The notes beneath the pieces were generated by a model. That model was not told where the DNA came from, did no database searches, and saw nothing but the letters and a program-made list of their open reading frames with translations. Source: a virus (lineage: Duplodnaviria; Caudoviricetes). Taken from it: 64,000 nucleotides of DNA. Position 1 is the stretch's first letter. Every line of letters starts with the position of its first letter. This document shows positions 4,783 to 59,546 of this stretch, one piece after another. The stretch lies in IMG/VR virus record IMGVR_UViG_3300027689_000001, positions 32,001 to 96,000 of that record; one strand, given 5' to 3'. Both the position numbers and the translations under genes were made by a program.

Positions 4783-4879
4783 ATATGAAAGGGTCCATTT
4801 TTCTTATTTTTTGTAATCTCTTTTTTACTCTTCTAGATTGTAAATAAGAACGAATTATCGTTAATATTTTTTTAAACAT
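4775..4879 (-). CDS. small basic protein MFKKILTIIRSYLQSRRVKKRLQKIRKMDPFIYD (34 aa)
   Basis: Below the ORF-track cutoff. It exactly fills the gap and overlaps both neighbouring genes; ends in DPFIYD. Confidence 0.6.
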   Translation of the reverse strand: MFKKILTIIRSYLQSRRVKKRLQKIRKMDPFIYD

Positions 4880-7584: not shown

Positions 7585-8809
7585 AACTTTTCTCCATCCA
7601 TGGATAAACACTTCTCCAACTTTGTCCCCTGCGTTGGTCAAGTCGATTTAAGTAGTTTTTCAGACGTTGTAATTTTACAGGGTCAGGTTCAGTCGAAACG
7701 ATCATATTACCAAAACCAGCAATATATGCTGTTGCATCTTTCCAGGGGCTGTTGGCAAGCGAATCATTCAATTTGTCTACAAACGGTTTCAATTCAGAAC
7801 CGAAAATTGCTGGATCCATAAACGTAGGAGAAGCAACAATATTAGCACCATAATTAATATGTTTTATCTTAGACCATTCGATTAATTTATCGACCAAAAC
7901 ATAAGCAGTCGGTAATGTTACTGACGATAATGTCGCCTGAATCGAGATCTTAACATTTTTTGATTGCAATAGAATGTTAAAATTATCTTGCCAGTTTTCT
8001 AGGGACATACCATGTCTAGCAAATTCTGCTTCTTTATCCCAGCAATCTATACTACAAACAATTTCAACCGATTTCAATTTACCATCTTCGACAAGTTTAT
8101 CGAGTTTTTGTATCGTTGCAATAAATTTAGGAGTAGGATGTTTGAGGTTTGAAAAGATTTTCCAATTTAATCTTGGGTGAGATCTTTGTTCAAAGAAACT
8201 TAAACATTCATAAAATTCTGGTTGGTATAATGGTTCACCGCCGAGCACTTGAAAGTCAAACAGTTCTTTGGAGTTGAAGTCCATCCAACTCCAAAATTTC
8301 TCTTTTATTTCAGCATAATTATCGACTGGTTTAAACGAACCGTCTAAATCATATTCGGATTCTAATGGACCATATTTCTTAATTTCTTGTTCGATTACGG
8401 AACTAAAAAGAGCATTGCAGTATACACATGCTTGATTACAAAGATTAGTAAAATAAACTTCTAAAATTCTTGGAGTAACTTTAGTTGCAAATGGATTATC
8501 TTTTAGTTCTGGGGGGCAACAATCGGCATCATTAATATATGCAGTGCGCTCACTCTCTCCACCAGCATCTTCAATTCTCTTGCAATATTCGCAACCGTTT
8601 CCAGGCCATTGTCCGTCAAGCATCTTCTCTCGATCTTTGACCTTTCCTGGATGGTTGTGGAAATCTTTAAAATCGATTTCATTCAAATCCCAACTATTGC
8701 ATCTGTGACAACTAGAGGTTGTGCCCTTTGAGAGAAAAATAGTACTCCACGTCCATTTGAATTGACATGCAGTTTTAGTTTCTATTGGAAACTTATGATA
8801 ATCAGTCAT
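7568..8809 (-). CDS. twitch/SPASM-domain radical SAM protein (copy 4)
   Basis: CQFKW...SCHRC, CEYC, CNQACVYC and LGGEPL. Confidence 0.9.
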   Translation of the reverse strand: MTDYHKFPIETKTACQFKWTWSTIFLSKGTTSSCHRCNSWDLNEIDFKDFHNHPGKVKDREKMLDGQWPGNGCEYCKRIEDAGGESERTAYINDADCCPPELKDNPFATKVTPRILEVYFTNLCNQACVYCNALFSSVIEQEIKKYGPLESEYDLDGSFKPVDNYAEIKEKFWSWMDFNSKELFDFQVLGGEPLYQPEFYECLSFFEQRSHPRLNWKIFSNLKHPTPKFIATIQKLDKLVEDGKLKSVEIVCSIDCWDKEAEFARHGMSLENWQDNFNILLQSKNVKISIQATLSSVTLPTAYVLVDKLIEWSKIKHINYGANIVASPTFMDPAIFGSELKPFVDKLNDSLANSPWKDATAYIAGFGNMIVSTEPDPVKLQRLKNYLNRLDQRRGQSWRSVYPWMEKSFDKFI

Positions 8810-10199
8810 GTCTTGTCCACCAATCGTATAATTCTGGATCTTCAGAATATATAGTTCTCAAATTAAGATTAGAATCATTTCTAATATGATCTAATAATTT
8901 TTGGTAATTCAATCCATTTTTAAATGATTGTTCTGCCTCATCGGGCCATTGTTCTTGAAAAGTTGGTCTATTCTTCATTTCCTGTAATGTTTTAATCAGA
9001 GTAAGTTGTTTATTCGTTCCACGGGGAATCATATACTCCAACAGAGAATCAATATGACGATCCAGAATATGTCGAGGCCAAGCAAACGGACTGAATACAA
9101 TATCTGCATGAAATGCAAACATAATTTTAGTTTCAATTCTAACGTCTAGTTCTTTACTGAGGTCGAAAAGGTTTTTGAGACTAAACATTCCTGGACCAGT
9201 AATGGTTAGATCAAGAACCATACGATCTTTGCCGTGTGGTAACTCGAGTCCTTTCTTAAAGTTCTCTAACCACTCTTTCCAAACTATTCCTTTGCGAATA
9301 AACTCTACGATCTCATCAGTTCCATCTATGCTTGCACAGATCAACCAGTTCTTAAACTGCGGGAGATAGTCATAAAGATTCTTACCGAAATAATCAACTC
9401 TACTTAGATTTGTATTATAACGTAAGTGGCAATTCTTTGCGCTGCCATTATCTACCATTTCTTGTAACGCCCACCAGTGGATATCATACATCAATGGTTC
9501 GCCGCCAACCCAGTAGCACTCTTCCACAATACCTCGAGTTACAGCATCGCGAAATTCTTCCTCTACCACTTCGGTCTGAAATTTTTGCATCTTTGCTTTG
9601 ACTTCTGGAATCATGAATGGTTGATTCTGTTTCGACCACATATTATGCTTACGCTTTTCTGCTTCCCAAGAAGAACTTAACTGTTCTCCGCACATGCGAC
9701 ATTTGAAATTACACAGATTACTAAACCGATAATCAAACGAAATAGGTTCCATTGTGGTATGACCTGTTTCGTCGGTTGAGTCAAAACATTCTTGAATCTT
9801 ATCATTAAATAGTGCGCCAGTGAACCAACTGCGATAGTTACTTACGCTGAGAATATCGTCGTTGCAAACATCGCACTGCGAGATACGTTCTCCCGCCATT
9901 AACTTGCGACGAATGTCTTTCATATATTCGCTGTTCCAGTGTTCCTTCAACGAGACTGGATTAAAATCATCTACCTCTGTTTTGCTTTCAGTAACTTCAC
10001 CATACTTGGAGTCATTACTCGCGTCGATGTATTGTTTCTGGAAACTATGCTGTTCTCTACTTGCACAGCACAGTCGTCTTTCCGCCTGTGGACTAATATA
10101 GGTGTGAGTCCACGGAGCAGTGCAAAAGACTTTATTTGGACTGTCTTCTTTTACTTTACCATGTTCCCACACAGGAAGAATTTTATCGCTCATTGACAC
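8802..10199 (-). CDS. twitch/SPASM-domain radical SAM protein (copy 3)
   Basis: CTAPW...LCC, CDVC, CNFKCRMC and VGGEPL. Confidence 0.9.
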   Translation of the reverse strand: MSMSDKILPVWEHGKVKEDSPNKVFCTAPWTHTYISPQAERRLCCASREQHSFQKQYIDASNDSKYGEVTESKTEVDDFNPVSLKEHWNSEYMKDIRRKLMAGERISQCDVCNDDILSVSNYRSWFTGALFNDKIQECFDSTDETGHTTMEPISFDYRFSNLCNFKCRMCGEQLSSSWEAEKRKHNMWSKQNQPFMIPEVKAKMQKFQTEVVEEEFRDAVTRGIVEECYWVGGEPLMYDIHWWALQEMVDNGSAKNCHLRYNTNLSRVDYFGKNLYDYLPQFKNWLICASIDGTDEIVEFIRKGIVWKEWLENFKKGLELPHGKDRMVLDLTITGPGMFSLKNLFDLSKELDVRIETKIMFAFHADIVFSPFAWPRHILDRHIDSLLEYMIPRGTNKQLTLIKTLQEMKNRPTFQEQWPDEAEQSFKNGLNYQKLLDHIRNDSNLNLRTIYSEDPELYDWWTRHD

Positions 10200-11739
10200 C
10201 TAAACTATCTGTTTTGGTATTCCATCCATGTGCGATTTCGTCGCTGATATACCCTTCTTCGGTAGTAGCAGGATTACCAGTTCGTTCTTTCAATCCAGTA
10301 TCTTCTTTATAATTTTTACCAAGAATTTCTTCAGTTGTTGGAACTGGAACATCAACACTATCAATAAAGTCTACAAAAATTTGTGGGAATGTTTCGCGGA
10401 AGTTCTTACCACGACGCACATCATATTGTAGATAGAAATTCTTAAAGTCGTTCCACAACTTTGATTCTTCGCTGGTGTTTATATGTGGTGTTTTAATTAC
10501 GTCAAGGTAATCAATCAAACGCTGAACATGAGAACGTTCCATAAGAGAAAATAATTGTATGCCGTTTTTATCTCTTTCATCTTTACTTACGATGTCCAAC
10601 AACCATTTTTCCAATTTGTTCTTATAAAATTCCTTGATATTAATCGGGAGGATAGCAGGACTTTGGAAACTAGGAAACCGCAAAAGATTCAGGGTCATTG
10701 TTGGAAACTCTCTTCCATATGTTCGTTTTAGGTCGAGCATATCATCCATGAATTCAGTAATCGACGCCAAACAAAGACCATTAATTGTCATCATTATGTG
10801 CAATTTCTTTAGATTTCCTTCAGTAACTAATCGATGGATATTTTCTTTCCACTGATCGTATATCATACCGTCACGAATATAATCTGAGTGTTTTCCAAGA
10901 GATTCGTTACTGGTATACACTTCGAAATCAGGCACGTGATGCGACATCTCAATTAGTTTATCTAGTAACGCTTTCTTAGGAACAAGATTAGAATTCATCG
11001 CATATCTAAGTTTCTTGCCCTTCTCAGGATTGTTTTTGAACCAATCGAATAATTTCCACACTGATGCTGCCATCAAAGGTTCACCGCCAGTGATTCTAAT
11101 TTCTTGCAAATTGTCTTGAAGATCTGATTCCCACCATTTCCAAAATGCCTGAATGTAAGGATTGTTTTCTTCTTTTTCTGCAGCTGGTTTTGCCCACGGA
11201 GAATCATCGATAAAATGCCCTCGCCCATCACTTTGAATGTTACGGTACGGACCAAACTTCTTGATGTCTTTAACCCATGTAGTAGAAAATCCTGGATTGC
11301 AATATGAACAAGCAAAATTACAGGTGCGGTCAAAACTGATCTCGAGAGTTCTAAGAGTTACATCTTCTTCCCAAGGCATGACTGCAGCCTTTTGAATATC
11401 TTCTTGTGAGTAAATCCCTGTCTTGTATACTCGGTCAGAAACATTATTTCGACCAATGTCTTCCACCTTCCAACAATATTCACATTCATTTGGTCGCTTA
11501 CCTTCTTGCATCATCTTACGCATAAGTTTTTTATGCTGCGTATTATGAATTGCAGAAGGATTGTTTTCTAGTTCTTTTGGATCGATATTATGTCCAGGAG
11601 GGTGATGGCATGATGTTGTTTGTCCATGTCCTAACCAAATGGTAGCATTGTACCATTTTGCGGCACAAAATGTATCCGAAATCGGATCGATAACATTCTT
11701 CTTATACTCAAGAAAAATATCGGTCTCTTTTGTGTCCAT
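10183..11739 (-). CDS. twitch/SPASM-domain radical SAM protein (copy 2)
   Basis: CAAKW...SCHH, CEYCW, CNFACSYC and ITGGEPL; start MDTKE overlaps the upstream TAA. Confidence 0.9.
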   Translation of the reverse strand: MDTKETDIFLEYKKNVIDPISDTFCAAKWYNATIWLGHGQTTSCHHPPGHNIDPKELENNPSAIHNTQHKKLMRKMMQEGKRPNECEYCWKVEDIGRNNVSDRVYKTGIYSQEDIQKAAVMPWEEDVTLRTLEISFDRTCNFACSYCNPGFSTTWVKDIKKFGPYRNIQSDGRGHFIDDSPWAKPAAEKEENNPYIQAFWKWWESDLQDNLQEIRITGGEPLMAASVWKLFDWFKNNPEKGKKLRYAMNSNLVPKKALLDKLIEMSHHVPDFEVYTSNESLGKHSDYIRDGMIYDQWKENIHRLVTEGNLKKLHIMMTINGLCLASITEFMDDMLDLKRTYGREFPTMTLNLLRFPSFQSPAILPINIKEFYKNKLEKWLLDIVSKDERDKNGIQLFSLMERSHVQRLIDYLDVIKTPHINTSEESKLWNDFKNFYLQYDVRRGKNFRETFPQIFVDFIDSVDVPVPTTEEILGKNYKEDTGLKERTGNPATTEEGYISDEIAHGWNTKTDSLGVNER

Positions 11740-13271
11740 TATAGTTCCTTGCACTTTTTATAGAAATTATTTAATTCAGGAAAGGTCGTCATAAAATCAG
11801 TATTTCTTCTTTTGTCCATTTCGTCTACATACTCAGAAAAACGTTTCATGTCTAGTTGTTTCTGGCGAGGATCCATTCCTGATTTCAGTATATCTAGGTC
11901 TCGTTGAACCTTGTCGATTTCATATGGTTTGAATCCACGCAAACTTCTGTTATAATCTTCTTGCTGAACGTTATCGCGCATGAATTGTAGGCAGTCTTCG
12001 AATTGTTCAATCATCTCAGTTTCTTCGTGTAGTAATTTCATATTCAACCAAGAAGGACTGTGGAGCATAGGTATGTCGAACCAAATTCTTTGTGCGACAT
12101 TACGAATGAATGGAGGATGCTTGAAACCATCATGATCAGGTGGTTGAATTACTTTTCGTTCTTGTTTATCGAAAGCAAATTCTTCGCGAAGTTCTAGGAT
12201 CCATTCTAAGAATCCTCGCAGTCCAGGAACACTCAGAATATTAAATGTATTGATAATAGTAATACTTGTTCCTTGTGTTGAATGAAGAAACTTCGATACA
12301 TTTGATTTCAAGACAGCATAATCCATACCAGTTCGGATATATTCTGCTTGTTTACCAACACTATCGCAACTTACAAACAACGAGAAGTGTTTGATTGCTG
12401 GAGCAACATACCAATAATTACCACTATCTGGATTTAAACGGTCAGGGTTTTCCCACACTCTGACTTCTTCCAGTTTCTGAACCTTAGAAATAAACTTATC
12501 GAAAATATCAGGTTTTGGAGGACATAAGTTACTGGTAATGCTCACCTCAAGCAGAGAGTTGGGATGTTTATCAACATACTCCAGAACCTTCCACGTATTA
12601 TGATCCATCAAAGGTTCACCACCTGTCATGCGGAAAATCTTAAGATTCTTATAGAGATCTGGCCACCATTTCCAAAATGCCTCAACGTAGGGATTGTCTC
12701 GGTTCGCAACCTTCTTGGGCATCAGATTTATACGAGCGAGTGCATCAAGATCGTTATGCCTTGCATCGGTTAGTGGTATTGCACCATACTTTACGATTTC
12801 TTCTTCCCAAGCAGAACTTAGGTGTGGACTACAGTAAAGACATTTAAAATTACACGCCTGATTGAAGTTGACTTCCACGTATGCGGGAGTCCACGAGGCA
12901 TCTAATTCAGCATCTCCGAGAGTAATCTTCTCGAAGTCAGGAGAGTTCCACCATTCGCTACTACGATAATGTCGATCGCTCGTATGACCTGCATCTTCAA
13001 TACGCCAACAGTACGAACAACCTTTTGGTCGCTCGCCCTTGCGCATCATAGCACGTTCTTCAATTTTCTGGGGAGTATTGTGGAGTAATCCTGGATTTTC
13101 AGACAATCCTTCTAGAGGAATATCGTGTGTCGGCGGATGGTAGCAACTATGCGTCTTACCGTTAGTAAGATGCATACTGACCATATTCCATTTTGCAAGA
13201 CACATCGACGAACTAGCAGACTTCAGTCGCTCTTTCATCTTTTCTGTCACATCATGATATTCATTACTCAT
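11739..13271 (-). CDS. twitch/SPASM-domain radical SAM protein (copy 1)
   Basis: CLAKW...SCYH, CSYCW, CNFKCLYC and MTGGEPL. Confidence 0.9.
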   Translation of the reverse strand: MSNEYHDVTEKMKERLKSASSSMCLAKWNMVSMHLTNGKTHSCYHPPTHDIPLEGLSENPGLLHNTPQKIEERAMMRKGERPKGCSYCWRIEDAGHTSDRHYRSSEWWNSPDFEKITLGDAELDASWTPAYVEVNFNQACNFKCLYCSPHLSSAWEEEIVKYGAIPLTDARHNDLDALARINLMPKKVANRDNPYVEAFWKWWPDLYKNLKIFRMTGGEPLMDHNTWKVLEYVDKHPNSLLEVSITSNLCPPKPDIFDKFISKVQKLEEVRVWENPDRLNPDSGNYWYVAPAIKHFSLFVSCDSVGKQAEYIRTGMDYAVLKSNVSKFLHSTQGTSITIINTFNILSVPGLRGFLEWILELREEFAFDKQERKVIQPPDHDGFKHPPFIRNVAQRIWFDIPMLHSPSWLNMKLLHEETEMIEQFEDCLQFMRDNVQQEDYNRSLRGFKPYEIDKVQRDLDILKSGMDPRQKQLDMKRFSEYVDEMDKRRNTDFMTTFPELNNFYKKCKEL

Positions 13272-13864
13272 TTAATACCAGTCACCATAAATCTGTAAAA
13301 ATGCCCACACTTCAACATACCAGCGTATTCTGGTTCTCTGACTCTGTTGATCAGCAGGAATTCCTCTAGAGTATCAGCAAGTCGAACATGCTCAGGATTA
13401 ACTAGATTATTTCCTTGGACTATGTATTTAGTCCCAGCAGGGATAGAGTTCCACCATGCATCGTAAACCTCTTGTGTTACATGTTCACTGCTGGTGTTGA
13501 TAACGAGATTCGGATATGGTTCATAAGACACCATACCATTGCTCATATCATGTTGTTGGTATTTAACATTCCTACTGAGATTGATTTGGTCAAATACAGT
13601 TTCACATTTAGAATCAAGATCTGTTGTTATGATATTAGTTTCAGGAAATCGTTCAGCAATAAATTGCGCCAGAATACCATACCAACCGCCGAAGATAACG
13701 ATAGATTTTGTCTCTTCTGGAATGCATTCGAGCAACCACTTCTTACTCTCGATCTGACTTGACCAGAAGTTTTCGGAGAATCTGTATGCATTATTCGGAT
13801 TATTGCGGATGTACTCCATCCACTTCATTACAATATCAAATTCAACCACGGCGCATTTTCGCAA
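13268..13864 (-). CDS. class I SAM-dependent methyltransferase-like protein
   Basis: IFGGWYG motif I, acidic TTDLD and INTSSEH. Confidence 0.75.
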   Translation of the reverse strand: MRKCAVVEFDIVMKWMEYIRNNPNNAYRFSENFWSSQIESKKWLLECIPEETKSIVIFGGWYGILAQFIAERFPETNIITTDLDSKCETVFDQINLSRNVKYQQHDMSNGMVSYEPYPNLVINTSSEHVTQEVYDAWWNSIPAGTKYIVQGNNLVNPEHVRLADTLEEFLLINRVREPEYAGMLKCGHFYRFMVTGIK

Positions 13865-14834: not shown

Positions 14835-15505
14835 TTAACTCTCTTTGCCAGCAATGCTGGCAAACTTTTTAGCATTTTCGACTACTTGGTATACATCCCT
14901 AACCAGTTCGGCAGTTTGCGGTCCGACGATGAGTTTGACTCCATAAGACTTGGTTTGACCTTCCAGACGAGCAGCCAGATTAACGCCATCACCCAAGCAA
15001 TTACAGTCAAAACGCTGAGTGCTGCCCATATTACCAACAACCACAGTGGCAGTGTTAATACCAAGACCCATCCCAAAAGCGGGCACACTTTCTCCTTTAA
15101 TTTCGTCATTGAAAATCTCCAAATCTTTTAACATTAAAAATGTCGTTGTGTGTTAATAAATATACTGGAAGATAGTAAAAATTACAGAGAATCAAACCGA
15201 GAGAGGAAGATAAATGCCAGAGCAAGAACAAGAAAAGAAACAAGACCCACAATTGTTGACAAATTCGGAATCGACACAGAATCACCACTCAGGAGAATTT
15301 CTAATAGATTGGTCTGTAACTGATGGGGATGTTGGGCACCTGAGAGAGTCGCTACAAGATTCGCAATTCCAGCAGCAGATACGCCAAGAATCACTATCTT
15401 ACCAGCCAGACCAGAAAGTGGTTCGCCAATTTCGACCGACTGAAATCGGTAGTTCGGATTAATGAAAACCCGACTGTATTCATCAGTCGGTACTTTCTTT
15501 AGCAT
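14835..15505 (-). pseudogene. CHASE2-domain adenylate/guanylate cyclase pseudogene (multiple deletions, frameshift)
   Basis: Fragments PTDEYSRVFI...GKIVILGVSAAG...TM (CHASE2 C-terminus) and GMGLGINTATVVVGNMGSTQRFD..LGDGVNLAARLEGQTK (class III cyclase C-half). The metal-binding N-half is absent. Confidence 0.85.
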
Positions 15506-15564
15506 TCTCTTCCTTTTTCTTTTCGGAAGAAAAACTAAACTCAAAACAGAATACTTTGAGGATC

Positions 15565-15828
15565 TCAATTTTTAGATTTATCGTCATTGTGATCCTCTTT
15601 TATTTGCAATACGGTACTCACCTTTTGGTTTAATCTTATCAAATCGTTATCGAGCATACGAACTCGATCGATCAACGCAATCAAAATTACATTCGTTTCG
15701 CCAATCAACGGCATTAATTTATCGGTTACGAACTTATAAATGAACCAAACAAAATAACCCATACCGACAGAAGCGACAATAGGAAATCCATACTGCTTTA
15801 CAAGTTCCGCAATGATAGAAGGATCCAT
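15565..15828 (-). CDS. small membrane protein (paralog of 15828-16115)
   Basis: YGFPI + TM + LIDRVRMLDNDLIRL coiled coil. Confidence 0.8.
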   Translation of the reverse strand: MDPSIIAELVKQYGFPIVASVGMGYFVWFIYKFVTDKLMPLIGETNVILIALIDRVRMLDNDLIRLNQKVSTVLQIKEDHNDDKSKN

Positions 15829-16115
15829 TAGTCCTTCCTTGCGTCATTCTTCCCGTCGGCTCGTGCGATTCTGTCTAGATCTGGTTTCAGACCGAGAGCG
15901 GAACTTACAACTGCATCAACGCGAATAATATCATGGTTCATGGTCTTCACTCGGTTATCTAACCCCATGATGATACCCTGCATTCCCTTGAGTGCTTTAA
16001 CAACACTTTCAAGAATATAGTTGATGACAAAATATACGAATACACCTGCAAGCAATGCGCCTGCGATCGGGAAACCAACGTCTCCGATTAATTTAAAGAT
16101 AACATCGTAACTCAT
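15828..16115 (-). CDS. small membrane protein
   Basis: VGFPI + TM + LDNRVKTMNHDIIR; late promoter upstream. Confidence 0.8.
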   Translation of the reverse strand: MSYDVIFKLIGDVGFPIAGALLAGVFVYFVINYILESVVKALKGMQGIIMGLDNRVKTMNHDIIRVDAVVSSALGLKPDLDRIARADGKNDARKD

Positions 16116-16133: not shown

Positions 16134-17249
16134 TTATCTTATAATGTCAATTTTTTCAATTGAGTCAGCATTCCAAACTTCTAGATCGCGGCGTAATCGA
16201 CCTTCTGCAACCAGATTATCATATCTAGAAGTTGCTTTACGCTTCCACCACGAAATAATATTATCCATATAATGTTTATCAAAGTTTTGTCCAGGAATTA
16301 ACTTATCCTGCTTGCCGAGAATAACTTCCTTGGAATTTTCATACCCGTATGTTGAAATATAGAAACGCTTCTTGGTGGTAATCTCTTTATTTAGTTTAAG
16401 CGCATCGCAGAACACCGAATACTGTTCGGATTCATGCTCCTTCAGTGATTTGCTGATGATGCTGTTCATCTTGTTCTGCATCTTCATCTTATATGATGCA
16501 ACACCCTCACGACCAAACAATGGCGCTCCACTATTTTTCTCGTAGAACCATTCCATGGTCTCGTCCCAGAAATCGTCGGAGAAAGAAAGAACAAAATTGC
16601 TAAGAGTGTCGCCTGTGTAACGGATAAACGGTTTCAATCCATCGTACTGAGATGCTTGCTTGATGCTACCATATAATGAGGTGGTTTCAAATAGACAAGT
16701 GTCCATGTTATACTTCTTGTTAAACATCTCGCGGAACTCATGCGAGGTGCAAAGAAGTGCAAGAAGTTTACCGCCCAGATAATTAAATCCGAACGGTTGA
16801 GCAGGAACAATGATGAACCCCATGACAGCATGTTTGTTGAACGACCGAAGATCGGGAACTTGTCCGAACCATTCATTACGTGGTCGTGAGTTTATGAATG
16901 GACTGGCAACTCGGCAGAATCCTACGTGCTTGCCAGTATTCTTTTCTCGTACGATGAACTTGATTTCCTTACCGAACGAATTCTCATTACAAAAGGAAGA
17001 AGTGATTTCTACCATTGTAGAAAATTCGCTCGGTGAAGGTTCATAGATCTCAAGATCCATGTCTTCAGGGTGCATATTAAAGTCGGAGAACAGATTGTTC
17101 TCAGGTTCAAACCCTGGAAGAGAGTGAGGAAGGGTTTTCAACCGCTCCAGTTTTTTCATGCGCATATGATCGTCAATACGACCATAATTTGACATGTAGT
17201 CAACGAATCGTTTTGCGATGTATTCTGCGTCGTGTTTTTCTAATATCAT
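16134..17249 (-). CDS. DUF4338 / DruA-like protein
   Basis: VPAQPFGFNYLGGKLLALL, ETTSLYG and SQYDG motifs. Confidence 0.7.
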   Translation of the reverse strand: MILEKHDAEYIAKRFVDYMSNYGRIDDHMRMKKLERLKTLPHSLPGFEPENNLFSDFNMHPEDMDLEIYEPSPSEFSTMVEITSSFCNENSFGKEIKFIVREKNTGKHVGFCRVASPFINSRPRNEWFGQVPDLRSFNKHAVMGFIIVPAQPFGFNYLGGKLLALLCTSHEFREMFNKKYNMDTCLFETTSLYGSIKQASQYDGLKPFIRYTGDTLSNFVLSFSDDFWDETMEWFYEKNSGAPLFGREGVASYKMKMQNKMNSIISKSLKEHESEQYSVFCDALKLNKEITTKKRFYISTYGYENSKEVILGKQDKLIPGQNFDKHYMDNIISWWKRKATSRYDNLVAEGRLRRDLEVWNADSIEKIDIIR

Positions 17250-17792
17250 TTAACCAGTATAAAGCATTTTTTTAATAAAGTCAATGATTTTTTGCTGATC
17301 GTCAAAAGATTCATTAAGAAACTCGGTCATCTCCATCTGAAGAACGAAGTTAGAGCGAATGTTGTTAATTTTACTCTCACGACCCTTCAACCAAGTCTCG
17401 TCTTGATTGCTACCACGTTCTGCATAGCGAACATTCCGAGTTTCCTTAGTGGTTTGTAGATAAACGATACAGGTGTCATACTTATCGACGCATTCTTCTA
17501 GGAATGAACCTGTGCAAAGACGATCGCCTTCGAATAGAACAATGTCATTGGGAGCACGAGATGCGAGAAACTTCACTGCCTCTGGTTGAACTGCCATTGA
17601 CATCTTGTCAGTGCCGCCAAACACTTCGCCTTCTTCATACTTACCTAAAACGTAAATGTTGTCCTTATTATGATAGGGAACCAACTTTACATCAGTCTTC
17701 ACTTCGCGAGAAATGCCAATCTCGTCGAGCAAACGTTTCATAAGGGTTGACTTACCGCTTCCAGGTTCGCCGAAAATTGCAATTACATTCAT
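17250..17792 (-). CDS. P-loop kinase, 5-hydroxymethylpyrimidine-DNA kinase-like
   Basis: GEPGSGKST, GKY...GGTD, FEGDRL and R..ERGSNQ..WLKGRESK; coupled to the aGPT-PPlase gene. Confidence 0.75.
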   Translation of the reverse strand: MNVIAIFGEPGSGKSTLMKRLLDEIGISREVKTDVKLVPYHNKDNIYVLGKYEEGEVFGGTDKMSMAVQPEAVKFLASRAPNDIVLFEGDRLCTGSFLEECVDKYDTCIVYLQTTKETRNVRYAERGSNQDETWLKGRESKINNIRSNFVLQMEMTEFLNESFDDQQKIIDFIKKMLYTG

Positions 17793-18811
17793 CCAAATAA
17801 ATCCTCTAATCCAACTGGTTTCTGTTCAACATCAAACATCCAATTCATTCTATCTAGTGTTCTAGACCGAACGTATTCACCACACTTGTCCTTATTAACA
17901 CCATACCGCGAAAGCAATCGAGAGTCAAGGATTTCTTCGCGAGATTGCCATAAAACATTCCACTCAATACCATACCAACCGTCTGCTGCTACTTTATTAA
18001 TCTCGTCTGCTTGACGATCTAGATAAAATCCTAGATATCGCGACGACCTTTCTCGAAAGATTTTCTTGAACGAGCAAAGACAGGTTTCCATAGTAAATGC
18101 GTCGAACTGTGGCGCAAGAGTTGGATAGCGATGACGTAATTCATCCAGAATCGACTGAGACTGATCTTCCAACCACTGATATTCCGCTTGAGTGAGTTTA
18201 CCATTAATCCATTCTTCCTTATCGAGAGCATAACAGAGACCATTGCGGTGTGACTTGCTACCTGAATAGTCATTCAACATTAGACTGGTAGGTTCGATCT
18301 TAATTCCTGCAGTATGCTTTAGATGCTGCATATAGAACCAAGTCGTGTAGCGACCGAACTTATGATAATTGGTATTGATAACCTTCCAAAGATTATCGAA
18401 GTTTTGAGTTTCGTTATCGCCGTAGTGAGATTCTAATACATCACGTTGAAGTTTCTTACCCATAAACTTCTGATACGACTCAAACATAGAAGGCAAATGC
18501 CCTTTATTGTATTTGGTATCTGTTTGATAACGAAGTCTTTTATAGTTTTCGTTATTCCACCATGTAATACGGTCTACAGTCGCAAGTTCGTAGTCTGGGA
18601 ACTCATTCTTGAGCACCCAAGATGTTGGAAGGTAATAGGTGTTACCGTATAACCAGCACAACCAAATACGTTCCTCGTCATTGTGTTCATATCGCTTATT
18701 GAGGTAGTTGGTCTGCCAGACCGAAGGATCACAATCCTTGTGACTAACAGACCAAGCATACCAGCGAATGAATAATTCTCTGTTAGATACTTCGATCCCA
18801 GAAAGACTCAT
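17789..18811 (-). CDS. alpha-glutamyl/putrescinyl-thymine pyrophosphorylase clade 2-like amino acid:DNA transferase
   Basis: DCDP, EERIWLCWLYGNTY, YQTDTKY, FGRYTTWFY (HhH-like), GSKSHRNGL, METCLCSFKK and RYLGFY.DR. Confidence 0.8.
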   Translation of the reverse strand: MSLSGIEVSNRELFIRWYAWSVSHKDCDPSVWQTNYLNKRYEHNDEERIWLCWLYGNTYYLPTSWVLKNEFPDYELATVDRITWWNNENYKRLRYQTDTKYNKGHLPSMFESYQKFMGKKLQRDVLESHYGDNETQNFDNLWKVINTNYHKFGRYTTWFYMQHLKHTAGIKIEPTSLMLNDYSGSKSHRNGLCYALDKEEWINGKLTQAEYQWLEDQSQSILDELRHRYPTLAPQFDAFTMETCLCSFKKIFRERSSRYLGFYLDRQADEINKVAADGWYGIEWNVLWQSREEILDSRLLSRYGVNKDKCGEYVRSRTLDRMNWMFDVEQKPVGLEDLFG

Positions 18812-20321
18812 ATTTCCTCACAATAATATTGCGAGCAGTGCTTGTAGTCATATTAAACAAATGTAACGGAGAATTGGTATCCAACTTAGTACCAGTCACA
18901 TCGAATACAATATCTTCGTCGATGATTTCATCAGAAAGATATTTATCGAAGCAATAGGCAATCCATCCACAATATAGTGCACGGTCGACTTTATTTTTAG
19001 AAGTCTTAGTTGCACCATCAGGAATAATGCGACGCGAAGTCCACATATTATTCACGTGAGGATTAGTAGTACCATGAATGGAATCTGAAGTTTGCAACTC
19101 GTCCATCATAATGAACAGATTGATCATCGAGGGATATTTCAACGTCGAATAAAATCCATTTACATAGGTTTTATTGGATGGTCGAGTAAACGGAAAATAT
19201 CCTGCTTTTAGATAATCCACCAAACGATTGATACCTTCTATAACCTTGTCGCGTTGCTCACCCTTAGTGGTCATGAGATAACGAATTAGCATTCCCATCA
19301 ATGGAGAAGTCAAAGACTTAGGAACATTATCGCGAGAAATAATATTACCAAGAGTAACAAATTCTTCAATGAAGTAATCAAGAACTTCAGTGGTCTTGAT
19401 TGCCTTTTCCTGCATATCATTCGAGTTAAGTCCCGCGAGATTGATGGGGTCATGTTCACCAACAGGAACATACTGATCGACGGCAACAACTGCAATGTCA
19501 TAAACCTTCTCACCCTTTTGAAAAACTGTAGGGAGATTCAAATGGTAATTCTTGTAACGAAGATAACCGCTCAGTTTTTCAGAGAAAGTTTCCGCAGTAT
19601 CGCTGGAGTCAATTGAGTGGTAAAGACGTTCTGCTTCTTCTTTATCATTTACAGGATAGAAAAGAACAGTCCAATTCTCAGGTTTGACATAATCAGGAAA
19701 CTGAAGGTTGTTATTGAAGATATGAGTTCGCGTGTTACCGTCAAGACGTTCAATTTTTCCGTCAGGATAAACCGCAACTTGCATTATACCATGCGTCGCT
19801 AAAGAAACATGCCCAATTGCACGCTTAGTCTTTTCCCAACGCAATGTTTCATTACGCTGGCACCAGACTGCAGCCCACGACTGAGCAATTTCTGCAGGAA
19901 CATCAGTTCGAACAGAAATCTTTTGACTCTTCAATTCAGCAAAGATTTGGGAAAGATCATAATTAATTACATTAGACGTTGATGTTTCAGATCCAATAAG
20001 AGTATCGATGATACCATTATCATACCAAAGTTTAAGAAGTTCGGTCGACTTCTCTGTCAGTTTCGATCCCTTGCGAAGATTATCTTCACGAGAAATCCAT
20101 TGTAAGTTGTCATCGCGACAAATTACCGAAACTGGGATATTGTGCTCGTAACCAAACTTGATCGAAATAGTATGGTCTAAATTTAATTCTTGACCATAAG
20201 ATCCGATCGGAAGAGGAATATTTTTCTTCTTCAAATCAGTAAGTTCGCGAGCTTTTGTTTCATAAGACTTGTAGTCACTGCTGACAGTGTTAATAAAATT
20301 AATCATAAAAAATACTTTCAT
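18783..20321 (-). CDS. HNH-like nuclease domain fused to a ParB/DGQHR-like domain
   Basis: N-terminal LDHTISIKFGYEHNIP...NLQWISREDNLRKG; central CQRN...VAVYPDG...RLDGNTR; has its own early promoter. Confidence 0.5.
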   Translation of the reverse strand: MKVFFMINFINTVSSDYKSYETKARELTDLKKKNIPLPIGSYGQELNLDHTISIKFGYEHNIPVSVICRDDNLQWISREDNLRKGSKLTEKSTELLKLWYDNGIIDTLIGSETSTSNVINYDLSQIFAELKSQKISVRTDVPAEIAQSWAAVWCQRNETLRWEKTKRAIGHVSLATHGIMQVAVYPDGKIERLDGNTRTHIFNNNLQFPDYVKPENWTVLFYPVNDKEEAERLYHSIDSSDTAETFSEKLSGYLRYKNYHLNLPTVFQKGEKVYDIAVVAVDQYVPVGEHDPINLAGLNSNDMQEKAIKTTEVLDYFIEEFVTLGNIISRDNVPKSLTSPLMGMLIRYLMTTKGEQRDKVIEGINRLVDYLKAGYFPFTRPSNKTYVNGFYSTLKYPSMINLFIMMDELQTSDSIHGTTNPHVNNMWTSRRIIPDGATKTSKNKVDRALYCGWIAYCFDKYLSDEIIDEDIVFDVTGTKLDTNSPLHLFNMTTSTARNIIVRKYESFWDRSI

Positions 20322-20425
20322 TGTAAACTACGAAAGGAATTTGCGTGGTGAACCATTAACGGTTGTGACAAATCAACATTCGGAGTTTTGTTTCATGTAA
20401 TAAGGGACATCCTCATTACAATACC

Positions 20426-20454
20426 ATTATACTAAACTTTACAGGGAAAGTAAA
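20426..20454 (-). promoter_or_regulatory. early promoter TTTACT-N17-TATAAT
   Basis: Overlaps the 3' end of the GNAT gene and points at the 18783-20321 gene. Confidence 0.65.
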
Positions 20455-20984
20455 TGGTTTTCTTCAATTTTTACAAATACTTTTACGCATCCACCCTTAC
20501 CTTTTCTATATACTGCTTTATTAATAACAGTATCGTTGATGTCATATAAACCATCGCGGTAGGTTGGACCATTGAGTTTGAACATAGACAGTTGACTGCC
20601 TGACTTCTGCTCACCGAGGAAAGTGAATCCACATTTCTCGTAGAATTGCACTGCATCTGCTTCTGCTGACACTCGGAAGTATGTGGCATTGTATCGATGC
20701 GCTTCAGCAATGGCAAAGTCACATAACGTCCTACCAACACCCTTGCCCCGCGAAGCATAGAATGTATGGAGCAACTGCAGGTTAGCAATGACGGGAGTTC
20801 GCTTAGAGAATGATACGATGATGGCGCCGAGAAGATTATCATCTTCCCAGACGCCCATACAGTTATCCCAGAGTTCTTGCATGTCTGCCTTTGCGACAAA
20901 AGTCTTTGCAAAGGAATCTTGCTTCTGAGTTGTAATATGTTTAGTAAATTCCTCGCGGGTTGTCGAACGCAACCTAGACAACAT
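20439..20984 (-). CDS. GNAT family acetyltransferase
   Basis: RGKGVGRTL acetyl-CoA motif A and AVQFYEKCGF motif B; start at MLSRL (20984) overlapping the amidoligase stop. Confidence 0.85.
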   Translation of the reverse strand: MLSRLRSTTREEFTKHITTQKQDSFAKTFVAKADMQELWDNCMGVWEDDNLLGAIIVSFSKRTPVIANLQLLHTFYASRGKGVGRTLCDFAIAEAHRYNATYFRVSAEADAVQFYEKCGFTFLGEQKSGSQLSMFKLNGPTYRDGLYDINDTVINKAVYRKGKGGCVKVFVKIEENHLLSL

Positions 20985-21858
20985 CGTGGAATTCTCGTTT
21001 CTTTTCACCACGAGACTTATCATACTTGGTTTTAATCCAACCAGCATATTCATTTAGATCCCAGATGAATGGTGGGAACTTGAAATCATTGTTAGCAAGG
21101 ATTTCTTTGACACTCGGTCCATCATTCAATGCTGCATCAATAAATGCAGTTGCAAACTTGAACTGATCTTCCATCTCACGACGATTTACAGTTGAACGGA
21201 AGCAACGGAACTCAATTGTGCCAGTATGCTTCATGCAATACATGTTGATCGCATAACGGAAGGGTCGACCCATCGAAACGCCATCTTTACCTGCTGCATG
21301 CATCTTGATAAACGAATTAAAATCTGTTGCAAGGTTGGCAATATTGTCACACATGTAATCAGGCATCTCACGACCACCGTCGAACTTGAGATATGTTGTA
21401 GCACCCTTTGCCGACTTCATACCACCACCATCGCGGAACTGGTAACATGCTTCGATAGTGTCTTTCTGATTTACCTTGATATATGCAGTGAGACGCTTCA
21501 ATGCATCAATGTCATCTTTCAGTCCTGGAACAAAAACGTGAAGGTGACCATGATTGACACAGGAAGCAGTTGGTTCATTACCAAAATCTTCGAACAGCAG
21601 ATGAATGTCCATGATACGATCAACCTGCTCCTCCCACGTACGAGTAGGTTTGGTATTAATCTCACCACCGAAGGCAGGTTCCTTCCCCAACGGATCACAA
21701 GCGATGTAGCGATAGGGTGCATGAATGTTTACAATATCAGTTTCCGCAAACTCCCATGCACCAAGTTCTTCTGGAATTTCAACGCGACGATCTATGTCAC
21801 CCCACTCAATTTCGTACCCATAAGTGAAGTCTTCAGGATTATATTTCATATTTACCAT
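20974..21858 (-). CDS. putative amidoligase (COOH-NH2 ligase, Amidoligase_2-like)
   Basis: FTYGYEIEW, GEINTKP, GHLHV, RYAIN and GTIEFRCF. Confidence 0.8.
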   Translation of the reverse strand: MVNMKYNPEDFTYGYEIEWGDIDRRVEIPEELGAWEFAETDIVNIHAPYRYIACDPLGKEPAFGGEINTKPTRTWEEQVDRIMDIHLLFEDFGNEPTASCVNHGHLHVFVPGLKDDIDALKRLTAYIKVNQKDTIEACYQFRDGGGMKSAKGATTYLKFDGGREMPDYMCDNIANLATDFNSFIKMHAAGKDGVSMGRPFRYAINMYCMKHTGTIEFRCFRSTVNRREMEDQFKFATAFIDAALNDGPSVKEILANNDFKFPPFIWDLNEYAGWIKTKYDKSRGEKKREFHDVV

Positions 21859-22534
21859 ATTGCAAGTCCTTATTGTTAGTATTTACCGCTGTTTCAGTAA
21901 TTTCACCATTAGAAACAGTATAAACTATATTCATGTTACAGTCAATAGTTTTTTCTACACCTGCACGATTAAAAATATCATGTGTAGAAGCAACAATTAC
22001 GCCATTTTCAGTTCTATACTGTGTAAGTGGGCGTTTACCGTTGCGGTAGAAGCGAAAAATCTTGTCAGAATGAACTTCACACGCTGAAATTGACGCATCA
22101 GGCCAACGTTCAAGTGGATTTTCACCATTTTCAACGGTTTTTAGCAAAAGTTCGCTGTCATTTCGTGTTTCAGTCGCGTAAGAACTGATTTTTGACCAAT
22201 TTTCGGGCAATTCTTGTGTAATTACACCATTATGAACGATTGCAACCTTGTCAGTGAACAATGGTTGGTTAAATTCTAGGTCTGAAGTGCTATAACGACA
22301 GTGTGCAACCATGTAAAGGTTGCCATCTTCATTCAGCATGCTATACATGTCAATGCCATCAAGGAATTCATCTGCTGGAAGTGGTGCTTTGATGGTAAAG
22401 ATGTGATTTTTACGAACAAACGACACACCTGTTGCGTGCAATCCCCGAATACGAGACTCAGAGATAACACGCTTCAGGAGCATCATGTCTTCAGCACTGG
22501 GATTTCTAAGAAATGCTCCAACAACACCACACAT
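21839..22534 (-). CDS. class II (Ntn) glutamine amidotransferase
   Basis: N-terminal MCGVVG, RG..ATG, HCRYST, NQP, VHNGVI and NDSE. Confidence 0.9.
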   Translation of the reverse strand: MCGVVGAFLRNPSAEDMMLLKRVISESRIRGLHATGVSFVRKNHIFTIKAPLPADEFLDGIDMYSMLNEDGNLYMVAHCRYSTSDLEFNQPLFTDKVAIVHNGVITQELPENWSKISSYATETRNDSELLLKTVENGENPLERWPDASISACEVHSDKIFRFYRNGKRPLTQYRTENGVIVASTHDIFNRAGVEKTIDCNMNIVYTVSNGEITETAVNTNNKDLQYGKYEI

Positions 22535-23871
22535 TAGAACAAATCTGCCAATGAAGACTCCACCGTGAACGCTGTAGGGTGATACTTCTCTAAGATTTCA
22601 GTGCCCATCTTGTTCTCGAGATATTCATACCACTCAGGTTCGTCCCACATTCCAGGCGAAACGCCATTCCAGAGTGGGCGATAGAACTTGTGGTTACGAT
22701 CCATTCGACGATCGGTTACAAACTGTTCACGAGTCTGCTCATATTCCCATGGTCCAAGATCTAGCATTGCTTCGCGAAAATAGCAAACCAACGAAATACG
22801 TTCAGCATCTGGAGTATCTAGAACAATCTCAGTATTAGCATGCATAATCTCGTGATTGTTAACCAGCAAAAGATCTCCTGGCCGAACATTCACTGCCATA
22901 CGATATTCTGGGAATACCAGATAACCACCAGTATAGTTACCCTTACCAACTACGAGAAGATTCGACAATCCACTGTCTAGATCGCCAGCATCTCGGTGAC
23001 ACGCAGTGCGGAAAGTCTTGTTAACGGTAATGGTGGTAAACACTGTCTCGGGAACGAGGAAGCGAGGGTCCAACTTGTCTGCCGCTGCTCGCTGATTACC
23101 CCAACGCCATGGTAGGAGTTCCTTAAAACCTCTGTCCAGCGACTGGAGGAACGGGAACGAGAGAGCAAACTTCTCTGGTTCATCGCGAGTGTATGAGGTG
23201 GCGCGACCGAAGGGAATGCGAGGATAACGGTCGAACCATCCAGCAACGCCAGAAAATACTGACTTCGCGTAGTTGGTCTGTGAAACCCACTTAGTGGCAA
23301 TCATCTTCGCTTCTTCTGCGCACTGTTCCTTGGTCTTATTATGAAGACCGTCGACCCACTTGTCAAACCATCCGAAGTATTCGGGATATGTCTTACAGAC
23401 CTGACTGCGCAACCAGACTTGACCACGAGTCTCGTCCTCAGTAGAACGACCTGCGCCTTCATACTTCTTACGAATGGACTCAATGGAAAGGTCATCAATC
23501 AAACGACCGTCTGTATTTAGCAGGAAGTCTAGAACCTCGAGTTCGTAACTGGTAACCCAATCACGTCCACCGCGACCTTCGACACCGAGAAGTTCTCCGC
23601 GAGGTCCAGCAGCGAGTCCACGATTCTGGGATTCTTTTGCTGCCTCGCGGAGACCGATGTATGCTGAATCTCGTTCTTCCTGTGTAAACCAGTTCTTGCG
23701 GAACTTGAACGCAATACGCTGCTCATTCCCAAGACTGGGTGAACCCATGACCGATTCCATGTAGCAATCTGTGTCTTCATTAATAACAATATCATAATGA
23801 CTGTCATCAACATATTGACCAAGCAAATGCTCACAATCGAGTTTAGAATCTGCAACAATAATTCTTACCAT
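22534..23871 (-). CDS. TET/JBP-family 2OG-Fe(II) dioxygenase (5-methylpyrimidine dioxygenase)
   Basis: TVFTTITVNKTFRTACHRDAGD (HxD), GGYLVFPEY..AV.VRPGDLL, MHANT (distal His) and RISLVCYFRE. Confidence 0.8.
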   Translation of the reverse strand: MVRIIVADSKLDCEHLLGQYVDDSHYDIVINEDTDCYMESVMGSPSLGNEQRIAFKFRKNWFTQEERDSAYIGLREAAKESQNRGLAAGPRGELLGVEGRGGRDWVTSYELEVLDFLLNTDGRLIDDLSIESIRKKYEGAGRSTEDETRGQVWLRSQVCKTYPEYFGWFDKWVDGLHNKTKEQCAEEAKMIATKWVSQTNYAKSVFSGVAGWFDRYPRIPFGRATSYTRDEPEKFALSFPFLQSLDRGFKELLPWRWGNQRAAADKLDPRFLVPETVFTTITVNKTFRTACHRDAGDLDSGLSNLLVVGKGNYTGGYLVFPEYRMAVNVRPGDLLLVNNHEIMHANTEIVLDTPDAERISLVCYFREAMLDLGPWEYEQTREQFVTDRRMDRNHKFYRPLWNGVSPGMWDEPEWYEYLENKMGTEILEKYHPTAFTVESSLADLF

Positions 23872-55618: not shown

Positions 55619-56331
55619 GCTCGCACCTCTTCAAGAATGTGATATTTAGGTTCCCATCCGAGTCTGAATATTTCATCGATATTGGCATGAGTGACTTCTC
55701 TCTCACCAACAACATCTTTGAACGGAACATCTCGGTAACCATAGGCATCCAAAACTTCACTAACAGAGATCGGTTTATCCGATCCAATATCTACTATACC
55801 CGAATAATTAGGATTAGTCAATAGAGTTTCAATCGCAGAGCAAATATCTTCAACGTGCGTCCAGTCTCGAAGATGTTTTGTCTTATATTCGATTTTATTA
55901 TTAAGCATCATATCATAGAACATGTCAGGTCGACTATCTGGACCATAAACTGTATGGAACCTCATACCAATCGAGTTATATGGTGCATGTTCTTCCATCG
56001 CTTTCTTACTAGTAGCATATGGATTCTTCCACCACTCATAAACTGATGAGGAAGATGCATAGATTACCTTGACACCATTGATTGTGCACCAGTCAAAAAT
56101 TCTCTTGGATGCAGTCACGTTGGTGACCCAATAACCTTCTGGATCATCCCAACTCTTACGAACACCAGCGAGTGCTGCTAAGTGCAACACTACATCTGGA
56201 TAACCGTAAGATTCCGTCATCTTCCATTCGCGGATATCTCCTTCATATGGAATTACCGTGTGATTCTTAGAAAGAATACGAAGCGCATTCCTACCTATAA
56301 ACCCTTCGTGTCCAGTTAGTAGAATTCTCAT
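55615..56331 (-). CDS. NAD-dependent epimerase/dehydratase
   Basis: TGHEGFIG, HLAA, YASSSS, YATSK and RFHTVYG. Confidence 0.9.
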   Translation of the reverse strand: MRILLTGHEGFIGRNALRILSKNHTVIPYEGDIREWKMTESYGYPDVVLHLAALAGVRKSWDDPEGYWVTNVTASKRIFDWCTINGVKVIYASSSSVYEWWKNPYATSKKAMEEHAPYNSIGMRFHTVYGPDSRPDMFYDMMLNNKIEYKTKHLRDWTHVEDICSAIETLLTNPNYSGIVDIGSDKPISVSEVLDAYGYRDVPFKDVVGEREVTHANIDEIFRLGWEPKYHILEEVRA

Positions 56332-57026
56332 GGTAGTTTTCTTTCGAATTCTTTCTGCGCTGCCATGTCATCTAGTGCTTTGATTACATCGGGGAAGTGT
56401 TGACCGATAATCTCCCAGCACTGTTCAGCAACGATACGATGTTCTTTCTGTGTCGCTTTATCCATGCGCAACTGACAGTAGTGAACCCATGAACGTAACG
56501 AACCTGCCATAATGATAGTCGATTCAGTTAGTCCTTCAGGCAGCAAGGCACGTGCTTGTTCTTTTGCTATACCAAGTTTAATAGCAGTATTATACTCTTT
56601 CTTGGCATGATAGATCATACGGCGCTGAATGTGTTCCCAGTCAGTGTCAATGATTTTATCATCTACTTCAATAGAGTTCTGTCGATTCTTAACGTCTTGT
56701 AGTCTTGGTTCTCTAGTGCCGAATCCAAGGTCTGTAGTCGGATCTGCATATCTCTGTGAAAATTCTTGGAACGAAAAGGATCGATGGCGAAGTATTTGCC
56801 GAGCGATGTCACGAGTTGTTTTAATTTCCATTGATACATGGACCATCTCCAAAGGTGACCAGTGTTGGTTCTTAATAAGATACTGAACCAGTTTAGGTGC
56901 TGTTGCTGTATTGTTCTGGTTAGAAGGATTAGATACTCTTGCTGCCCATGCAACCAGTTCATTGGCAGTACTACATTCTGTATACGCACTTGGTTTTGTA
57001 AGTCCGATCAGATTTACTTCGCTCAT
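56328..57026 (-). CDS. thyX: FAD-dependent thymidylate synthase
   Basis: HWSPLE, RHRSFSFQEFSQRY, EQARALLP and TQKEHR. Confidence 0.95.
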   Translation of the reverse strand: MSEVNLIGLTKPSAYTECSTANELVAWAARVSNPSNQNNTATAPKLVQYLIKNQHWSPLEMVHVSMEIKTTRDIARQILRHRSFSFQEFSQRYADPTTDLGFGTREPRLQDVKNRQNSIEVDDKIIDTDWEHIQRRMIYHAKKEYNTAIKLGIAKEQARALLPEGLTESTIIMAGSLRSWVHYCQLRMDKATQKEHRIVAEQCWEIIGQHFPDVIKALDDMAAQKEFERKLP

Positions 57027-58862: not shown

Positions 58863-58868
58863 AATACA

Positions 58869-58897: not shown

Positions 58898-58902
58898 GGG
58901 AT

Positions 58903-59541: not shown

Positions 59542-59546
59542 ATCTG

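Follow-up and report, generated by a model that had tools for sequence, protein, structure and literature searches.

The stretch of DNA analysed here, called the window, comprises 64,000 nucleotides (bases 32001-96000) of the IMG/VR virus record IMGVR_UViG_3300027689_000001, which is 150 kb long and 92% complete. Searches described below as record-wide cover these 150 kb. The record belongs to an uncultured T4-like phage, and its minus strand carries a run of eight open reading frames (ORFs) that reads from position 23871 of the window down to 16134. An initial annotation had described eight co-oriented genes here as a pathway for DNA hypermodification, and all eight are found. As judged from its sequence and gene content, the run probably contains a modular cassette for the post-replicative hypermodification of thymidine. 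Its parts, together with the thymidylate synthase gene discussed below, are as follows.

22534..23871, minus strand: TET/JBP (5mYOX) Fe(II)/2-oxoglutarate dioxygenase (TET), 445 aa, predicted to oxidise thymine in DNA to 5-hydroxymethyluracil (5hmU); Pfam Tet_JBP
21839..22534, minus strand: stand-alone class-II (Ntn) glutamine amidotransferase (GATase), 231 aa; Pfam GATase_6
20974..21858, minus strand: divergent Amidoligase_2-type carboxylate-amine ligase (amidoligase), 294 aa; Pfam matches of relatives and ESM-Atlas neighbours
20439..21053, minus strand: GNAT acetyltransferase, 204 aa in the longest ORF; Pfam Acetyltransf_10, Acetyltransf_7 and Acetyltransf_1
18783..20321, minus strand: protein with HNH, ParB/Srx-like and helical C-terminal domains (HNH-ParB), 512 aa; AlphaFold2 (AF2) model, structure alignment and invariant motifs
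18779..20422, no strand: swapped 1644-bp module, consisting of the HNH-ParB gene and ~100 nt upstream; blastn breakpoints
17789..18811, minus strand: amino-acid:DNA transferase (AADT, formerly aGPT-Pplase2), 340 aa; Pfam ADDT
17250..17792, minus strand: P-loop kinase (Ploopntkinase3), 180 aa, predicted 5hmU-DNA kinase; Pfam and Walker A motif
16134..17249, minus strand: DruA/DUF4338 protein with a GNAT fold, 371 aa; Pfam DruA and AF2 model
56328..57026, minus strand: ThyX flavin-dependent thymidylate synthase; PF02511, E=1.6e-43

Adjacent ORFs in the run overlap or abut with a single exception. TET and GATase have 1 nt in common, GATase and the 294-aa ORF overlap by 20 nt, and the latter overlaps the longest GNAT ORF by 80 nt. 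The true start of GNAT is probably near Met24, which leaves an overlap of ~11 nt. The exception is a gap of 117 nt ahead of the 512-aa ORF. This ORF has 29 nt in common with AADT, the kinase starts with a 4-nt overlap on AADT, and DruA abuts the kinase directly. Six of the eight proteins score above curated Pfam cut-offs (Tet_JBP, GATase_6, GNAT, ADDT, Ploopntkinase3 and DruA/DUF4338). The family assignments of the initial annotation hold, those of the amidoligase and HNH-ParB on the further evidence given below. A megablast search of the cluster against a phage collection returned no match.

Enzymes of the cassette and their relatives

TET matches Pfam Tet_JBP (PF12851) at 2.9e-23 and 82.3 bits, where the gathering score is 34.9. 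Residues H292, D294, H344 and R358 are invariant among 72 homologues and align with the HxD...H...R pattern of CcTET, which supplies the iron triad and the 2-oxoglutarate-binding arginine. An N-terminal region of 240 aa is also conserved. Most homologues carry a cysteine-rich insert (CxxxCxxC-like) in this region, which the window protein is without, near residues 40-60. The closest relatives from cultured phages, at 44-49% identity, are those of Stenotrophomonas phage DLP6, phage C48C1 and Caulobacter phage Cr30. Oxidation of thymine in DNA has been demonstrated for phage TET/JBP enzymes (O'Toole et al. 2026, PNAS, PMC13229309).

The nucleotide metabolism genes of the phage point to the base that is modified. 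The ThyX gene reported by the initial annotation is confirmed, and the record encodes a single ThyX and a single AADT. The presence of ThyX suggests that the phage makes ordinary dTMP. The initial annotation had also proposed searching the rest of the genome for a C5-cytosine methyltransferase or a dUMP hydroxymethylase. Record-wide searches with PF00145 for the former and with PF00303 for ThyA-family enzymes, which include dUMP hydroxymethylases and dCMP methylases, found neither. Because ThyX is present while ThyA-family enzymes and C5-cytosine methyltransferases are absent from the record, the substrate is probably thymine, and 5hmU would arise in DNA that is already replicated. These searches fit the original line of reasoning, in which TET creates 5hmU in replicated DNA for use by the kinase and AADT.

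AADT matches Pfam ADDT (PF18724) at 1.3e-19 and 71.3 bits (cut-off 26.2). Its nearest characterised clade is that of the serine transferases from phages ViI and CBA120, at 25-28% identity, with 28% identity to CBA120 orf248 (E=5e-25). Residues E242 and C246 are invariant over 13 sequences, that of CBA120 orf248 included. A Glu/Cys pair is essential in the AADTs M6 gp51 and ViI gp247, and the mechanism, which passes through an exocyclic methylene, accepts both amines and hydroxyls as nucleophiles (PMC8989533). The kinase matches Pfam Ploopntkinase3 at 7.5e-15 and 55.4 bits (cut-off 27) and has the Walker A motif GEPGSGKST. It is present wherever AADT is in related loci.

Three further enzymes could tailor the product. 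GATase matches GATase_6 at 1.3e-9 and 38.6 bits (cut-off 27), and it begins with MCG, so that Cys2 is intact. It is found alongside the AADT clade of this cassette in 24 of 24 loci, four of which have neither amidoligase nor GNAT (L016/17/69 and L074, in the numbering of the comparison set described below). Loci with the other AADT clade have no GATase (0/15). Since GATase is kept with this AADT clade where there is no amidoligase, an obligate GATase-amidoligase pair does not fit, and the pairing of the two proposed by the initial annotation is not favoured. The joint occurrence of GATase and AADT suggests instead that ammonia from glutamine may be used in the transferase step.

The amidoligase is a probable assignment made through its relatives. 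All 39 that were sampled match Amidoligase_2 and essentially no other family, the best at 9.4e-5, and the nearest clusters in the ESM-Atlas are amidoligases (feature-search score 0.98). It has 597 homologues, and a phmmer search of the 294-aa protein against PDB sequences returned nothing useful. No other protein of the cassette is as well conserved, its identity being 60-73% where TET has 55-70%. GNAT matches Acetyltransf_10 at 1.6e-12 and 48.0 bits, with additional matches to Acetyltransf_7 and Acetyltransf_1.

TET and AADT share a C-terminal feature with the replication machinery. TET ends in SLADLF, AADT in GLEDLFG and the family-B DNA polymerase, identified with Pfam, in SLEDLFT. The pattern [STG]L[EDA][DE][LF]F, drawn up after these three tails were seen, occurs three times in the 47.5k residues of the predicted proteome, always at a C-terminus and always in these proteins; 0.003 C-terminal occurrences are expected in a shuffled proteome. 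Nearly all 72 TET homologues keep the tail, though the linker before it diverges. The tail of T4 gp43, ASLDFLFG, binds the gp45 clamp (PMC6212786). The genome also has a weak candidate for a gp45-like clamp, with a weak DNA_PPF match in a 221-aa frame at 117345-117542. The polymerase-like tails probably allow TET and AADT to travel with the sliding clamp, and modification would therefore follow the replication fork. Separately, many GATase homologues end in (I/V)EDLQ and many GNAT homologues in GL(D/E)xF-type sequences that resemble these tails; the ends of GATase and GNAT in the window are weaker versions of them.

The cassette was compared with a set of 80 related viral loci, labelled with L-numbers. 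The order TET, GATase, amidoligase, GNAT, nuclease-ParB gene, AADT, kinase recurs in ~20 of these and also in other T4-like backbones. Different sets of genes accompany TET orthologues elsewhere. In one set, TET is followed by GATase, a 213-aa protein, AADT and kinase. Another combines a distant AADT and a kinase, often with inositol-phosphate synthase. This is the arrangement in the cultured phage Cr30 (L002, record 56426-60681), where an AADT-like gene with 32% identity lies ~1.7 kb from the TET orthologue and is followed by inositol-1-phosphate synthase; the metagenomic loci L030 and L072 have the same cassette type. In the remaining set, TET is accompanied either by a glycosyltransferase of the TET-associated type or by enzymes of sugar-nucleotide metabolism. 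L009 encodes such a glycosyltransferase (Pfam TAGT; L009:11377-12186), L010 an ORF that corresponds to it in size and position (L010:5689-6498), and L013 an epimerase with a UDP-galactopyranose mutase (L013:6487-9452). In all three loci these genes lie between TET and the DruA-like gene, as alternative tailoring sets at the same site, and the TETs are 74-77% identical to that of the window.

Gene neighbourhoods of this kind have been published. Lee et al. (2021, NAR, PMC8989533) describe metavirome contigs with TET_JBP beside kinase and AADT (sequences 22-25 of their Fig. 2), infer that TET replaces a dUMP hydroxymethylase and note amidoligase and glutaminotransferase genes whose function was unknown there. 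Burke et al. (2021, PMC8256090) also saw TET together with kinase and transferase, and O'Toole et al. link phage thymine dioxygenases to GATase, kinase, AADT and ParB (PMC13229309). The statement in the initial annotation that no characterised pathway has this combination was thus too strong, since two of these papers (Lee et al. and O'Toole et al.) describe such neighbourhoods and thymine dioxygenase activity has been shown. The cassette is an intact, well-delimited member of a published class. Among the publications searched, none identifies its product or the roles of GATase and amidoligase.

Several known systems resemble the cassette. The contigs of Lee et al. have the same gene set and led to the same conclusion about TET, but that paper does not mention the product, the order of steps, the clamp-type tails or the nuclease-ParB slot. 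Also close to the window are the ParB-dependent clade C1 clusters of O'Toole et al. (for example 5mYOX176/ParB176), in which a TET_JBP dioxygenase with an extended C-terminus and no neighbouring C5-cytosine methyltransferase is linked to a protein of the ParB fold as well as to AADT, GATase and P-loop kinase. The window differs in that its TET has 445 aa with the conserved 240-aa N-terminal region, and in that TET orthologues at 64-77% identity occur without a ParB-like gene. The pathways to 5-(2-aminoethoxy)methyldeoxyuridine (5-NeOmdU) in ViI and CBA120 and to 5-acetylaminomethyl-deoxyuridine (5-AcNmdU) in PaMx11 share the kinase and AADT chemistry on 5hmU in DNA, and PaMx11 also uses a GNAT-like acetyltransferase. 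However, the 5hmU of these phages comes from a pre-replicative dUMP hydroxymethylase. The PLP decarboxylase or FAD lyase used in their tailoring is absent here, and GATase and amidoligase are absent there. Synthesis of base J by JBP1/2 and a glucosyltransferase likewise begins with post-replicative conversion of thymine to 5hmU by a TET/JBP enzyme, and the relatives L009 and probably L010 have the TET-associated glycosyltransferase at this site. For the window, by contrast, the prediction is that phosphorylation and replacement of the hydroxyl take the place of glycosylation.

The nuclease-ParB gene between GNAT and AADT

The 512-aa protein has no Pfam match, ParB_N included, and the ParB_N and Mom models find no match in the window's own genome. 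A phmmer search against PDB sequences was equally unproductive, and Foldseek with the AF2 model (predicted local distance difference test, pLDDT, 86.5) returned weak ParB rows alone, with E values of 0.03 or worse. Structure alignment with VIA-align assigns residues 131-243 to the ParB/Srx fold (PadC, Z 6.5; pNOB8 ParB-N, Z 6.1), and residues 10-105 or so match HNH structures with Z 3.5-4.8. The ParB-like domain is followed by a helical C-terminal region of 270 aa with no assigned fold. Invariant residues in 47 relatives are D49, H50, N72 and N81 of the HNH domain, and Q155-R156 and D194-R198 (DGNTR) of the ParB-type boxes.

A gene of 1.4-1.6 kb that encodes a nuclease-ParB protein occupies the slot between GNAT and AADT in 19 of 20 related cassettes, and the slot is empty only in L014. 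Three types of gene are found there. Family A is the HNH-ParB type of the window, a distant HNH-ParB subfamily occurs in L083 and L023 (18% identity), and family B combines a GIY-YIG-like head with a ParB_N-like core. This GIY-YIG head is probable, as judged from its motif, one Pfam match at E=0.55 and weak N-terminal cross-matches. When families A and B are compared with hhalign, only the region that resembles the ParB nucleotide-binding domain (NBD) aligns (probability 19%, E=0.0012), which is suggestive of homology in the ParB-like core.

The slot genes are exchanged precisely. Flanks of 92-94% identity surround the slot in the window, L005-L008 and L083, yet three different genes occupy it there. 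Comparison with L006, L008 and L083 by blastn places the breakpoints of the swap at the same positions on both sides, 18778/18779 and 20422/20423. At the same time, family A homologues with 42-47% identity hold this position within the cassette in T4-like phages whose backbones are quite different. The label 'insert', which the initial annotation gave to HNH-ParB, is not upheld by this occupancy and constancy of position; the nuclease-ParB protein is a conserved yet exchangeable accessory of this cassette type. Because TET orthologues (64-77% identity) in other cassette types are without a ParB-like gene in 69-147 kb of record, the slot gene is tied to this type of cassette and not to TET as such.

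A profile search with an HNH-ParB alignment among 1.84 billion representatives gave only eight matches at E up to 1e-30. Beyond these eight, the matches split into stand-alone HNH proteins and proteins of 290-340 aa whose similarity is confined to the ParB-like domain. The three readable contexts of the short relatives are beside a Dam methylase, near a terminase and in an unrelated element, with TET nearby in none. Continuity with TET-linked ParBs is unsupported by the profile search and these contexts. A promoter belonging to the slot gene was also considered and rejected. Sigma-70-like sites are not enriched (27 found; 21.5 +/- 4.8 expected), and the best of them near the gene, at 20454-20426, is in the conserved flank outside the swapped module.

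Known ParB-fold proteins differ from HNH-ParB in architecture. The ParBs of O'Toole et al. consist only of an N-terminal NBD and a C-terminal dimerisation domain, whereas the window protein has an HNH head and a large helical C-terminus within its 512 aa. The DNA modification-linked systems GmrSD, BrxU and SspE, like HNH-ParB, join a ParB-fold domain (a ParB-like NTPase) to an HNH-type nuclease. Their domain order is reversed, however, their structural similarity to the window protein is weak (BrxU, Z 3.2; SspE, Z 3.7), and the protein studied here is encoded by a phage within a modification cassette.

Proposed pathway and alternatives

The best reading of the gene content is a post-replicative route from thymine through 5hmU and phospho-5hmU to an N-substituted base. 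The phage would replicate with ordinary thymine, as the presence of ThyX and the lack of a hydroxymethylase in the record would allow. TET would then hydroxylate thymine in DNA to 5hmU, an activity known from phage relatives of its family, and the P-loop kinase would phosphorylate the hydroxymethyl group. AADT would use its Cys/Glu pair to drive out the phosphate, and a nitrogen (or oxygen) nucleophile would be attached to the 5-methylene, by the mechanism demonstrated for the M6 and ViI enzymes (PMC8989533). Tailoring by GATase, amidoligase and GNAT would yield an amide-type or acetylated side chain. For the order of these last steps we lean slightly towards a scheme in which GATase would deliver ammonia to AADT to give 5-aminomethyluracil, the amidoligase would acylate the amine and GNAT would cap the product.

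Several observations weigh against this interpretation. The kinase has no BLASTP similarity to CBA120 orf243, a protein annotated as guanylate kinase that, going by its gene number, would correspond to the ViI kinase gp243. The 294-aa protein itself falls under the Pfam cut-off for Amidoligase_2 (PF12224; E=0.029, 14.7 bits where 22 are required). The connection between GATase and AADT is thin, as it draws on about two independent lineages without amidoligase, and the tail pattern was defined with its three occurrences already in view. The missing 8% of the genome could hold a methyltransferase or hydroxymethylase. Finally, some clade C1 TETs without ParB are inactive on thymine and 5-methylcytosine in E. 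coli (PMC13229309).

The slot gene could serve as a helper of TET in the sense of O'Toole et al., as a nuclease against unmodified DNA or as a resident homing nuclease. If the last is true, the 512-aa HNH-ParB gene would be a selfish, free-standing homing endonuclease in the GNAT-AADT junction that has no part in the chemistry, an explanation that we find plausible though somewhat doubtful. A nuclease head (HNH, or GIY-YIG-like in family B) in front of a region that putatively binds DNA is the arrangement seen in the T4 Mob and Seg proteins. Homing would also agree with the precise replacement of three unrelated or distant versions at constant breakpoints between nearly identical flanks, with the empty site of L014, with the cassettes of TET orthologues that do without a ParB-like gene and with the unrelated phage contexts of the short ParB-like-domain relatives. 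An occupancy of 19/20 is not sporadic, however, and distant homologues are always at the same slot. Every copy is intact, with invariant catalytic and ParB-box residues. Because the NBD-like core is all that families A and B have in common, this core is suggested to be the part under selection. In clusters of this type, moreover, ParB homologues activate their cognate TETs (PMC13229309).

Other explanations accept the cassette and change its chemistry. In the order preferred by the initial annotation, which we consider rather unlikely, AADT would attach a free amino acid to phospho-5hmU, GATase and amidoligase would amidate its carboxylate, and GNAT would acetylate its amine. Pairing of an Ntn-type GATase with an ATP-dependent ligase follows the logic of asparagine synthetase, and the GATase and amidoligase genes are adjacent, with their 20-nt overlap. 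The similarity of AADT to ViI-type enzymes is in keeping with this order, and an O-linked serine would have its amine as well as its carboxylate free. At 25-28% identity, however, the substrate of AADT is not fixed, and GATase stays with the AADT clade in the four loci without amidoligase and GNAT. The end product could also be a base that is already described, such as 5-AcNmdU. PaMx11 makes this base from 5-aminomethyl-deoxyuridine with a GNAT-like acetyltransferase (PMC8989533), and ammonia transfer by GATase and AADT followed by GNAT would reach it by another route. This is improbable, as it leaves the amidoligase, the most conserved protein of the cassette, without a role. It is very improbable that the dioxygenase acts on 5-methylcytosine, such that cytosine rather than thymine is hypermodified. 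Phage TETs of clades A and B do oxidise 5-methylcytosine, and kinase-linked routes through 5-hydroxymethylcytosine have been proposed (PMC8256090). Yet the record contains neither a C5-cytosine methyltransferase nor a ThyA-family dCMP methylase, the characterised AADT family works on 5hmU, and thymine is inferred to be the substrate in the literature where clusters have no C5-cytosine methyltransferase (PMC8989533, PMC13229309).

The preferred route through 5hmU can be extended to a more detailed scheme, which we consider unlikely as a whole. The cassette would write an undescribed amide-type thymine derivative directly behind the fork, with TET and AADT tethered to the clamp and glutamine-derived ammonia used at the transferase. 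The exchangeable nuclease-ParB protein would either activate TET on duplex DNA or destroy unmarked DNA.

Neighbouring genes and biological meaning

The DruA-like gene at the downstream end of the run was listed with the cassette genes by the initial annotation, and this inclusion needs correction. The gene occurs in 31 phage records, mostly of T4-like cyanophages, and these have no overlap with the 13 TET-positive records. In the one region that was read, that of S-SCSM2R, its neighbours on both sides are clamp-loader genes. No DruA-like gene accompanies the family-A cassettes of other backbones. The gene probably belongs to the backbone of marine T4-like phages rather than to the cassette.

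The encoded protein matches Pfam DruA (PF14236) at 7.7e-12 and 45.4 bits (cut-off 27) and has 5913 homologues. DUF4338 has been termed a GNAT (PMC10853773), and the top 50 structural matches of the AF2 model (pLDDT 84) are all GNATs. The best and widest match is phage Mu Mom (8bv8; Z 9.4, 172 residues aligned), with ordinary GNATs within 1 Z. The GNAT fold is common to both proteins, but the DruA-like protein has no Pfam Mom match and carries extra N- and C-terminal helices. It may acylate DNA independently of the cassette. A second link to Mom-type GNATs is seen at L091:177-1076, where another phage with the same cassette encodes a Pfam Mom-family protein two genes upstream of TET.

Other parts of the window contain further gene groups. 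Six tandem radical SAM genes, two with an N-terminal SPASM match, extend over 4872-13271. They are flanked by a complete carbamoyltransferase gene (2511-3938) and a weak methyltransferase-like ORF (13268-13864), and, in the 80 related loci, the 10-kb flanks contain none of these genes (2511-13864). Between this group and the DruA-like gene, positions 14835-16115 contain two paralogous small genes (both phrog_18771) and then short ORFs with matches to fragments of a single long PHROG family. These look like remnants of a larger gene, and one of them has a weak CHASE2 match. The ThyX gene is part of a single run at 53270-57568, together with genes for the large subunit of ribonucleotide reductase, a MazG/PRA-PH-type pyrophosphohydrolase and an NAD-dependent sugar epimerase/dehydratase.

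Post-replicative thymine hypermodification initiated by TET/JBP enzymes is a recently recognised means by which phages hide their DNA from restriction and CRISPR. The window provides a complete and intact cassette of the GATase/amidoligase/GNAT type with defined parts. Its relatives include natural drop-outs that have no amidoligase and GNAT, have no ParB gene or carry a glycosyltransferase instead, and they amount to a ready-made experimental design. New ligases and transferases that act on DNA would be useful as tools. How a post-replicative writer might cover the whole genome is suggested by the clamp-type tails, and the exchangeable nuclease-ParB slot is relevant to the function that ParB homologues have for TET dioxygenases.

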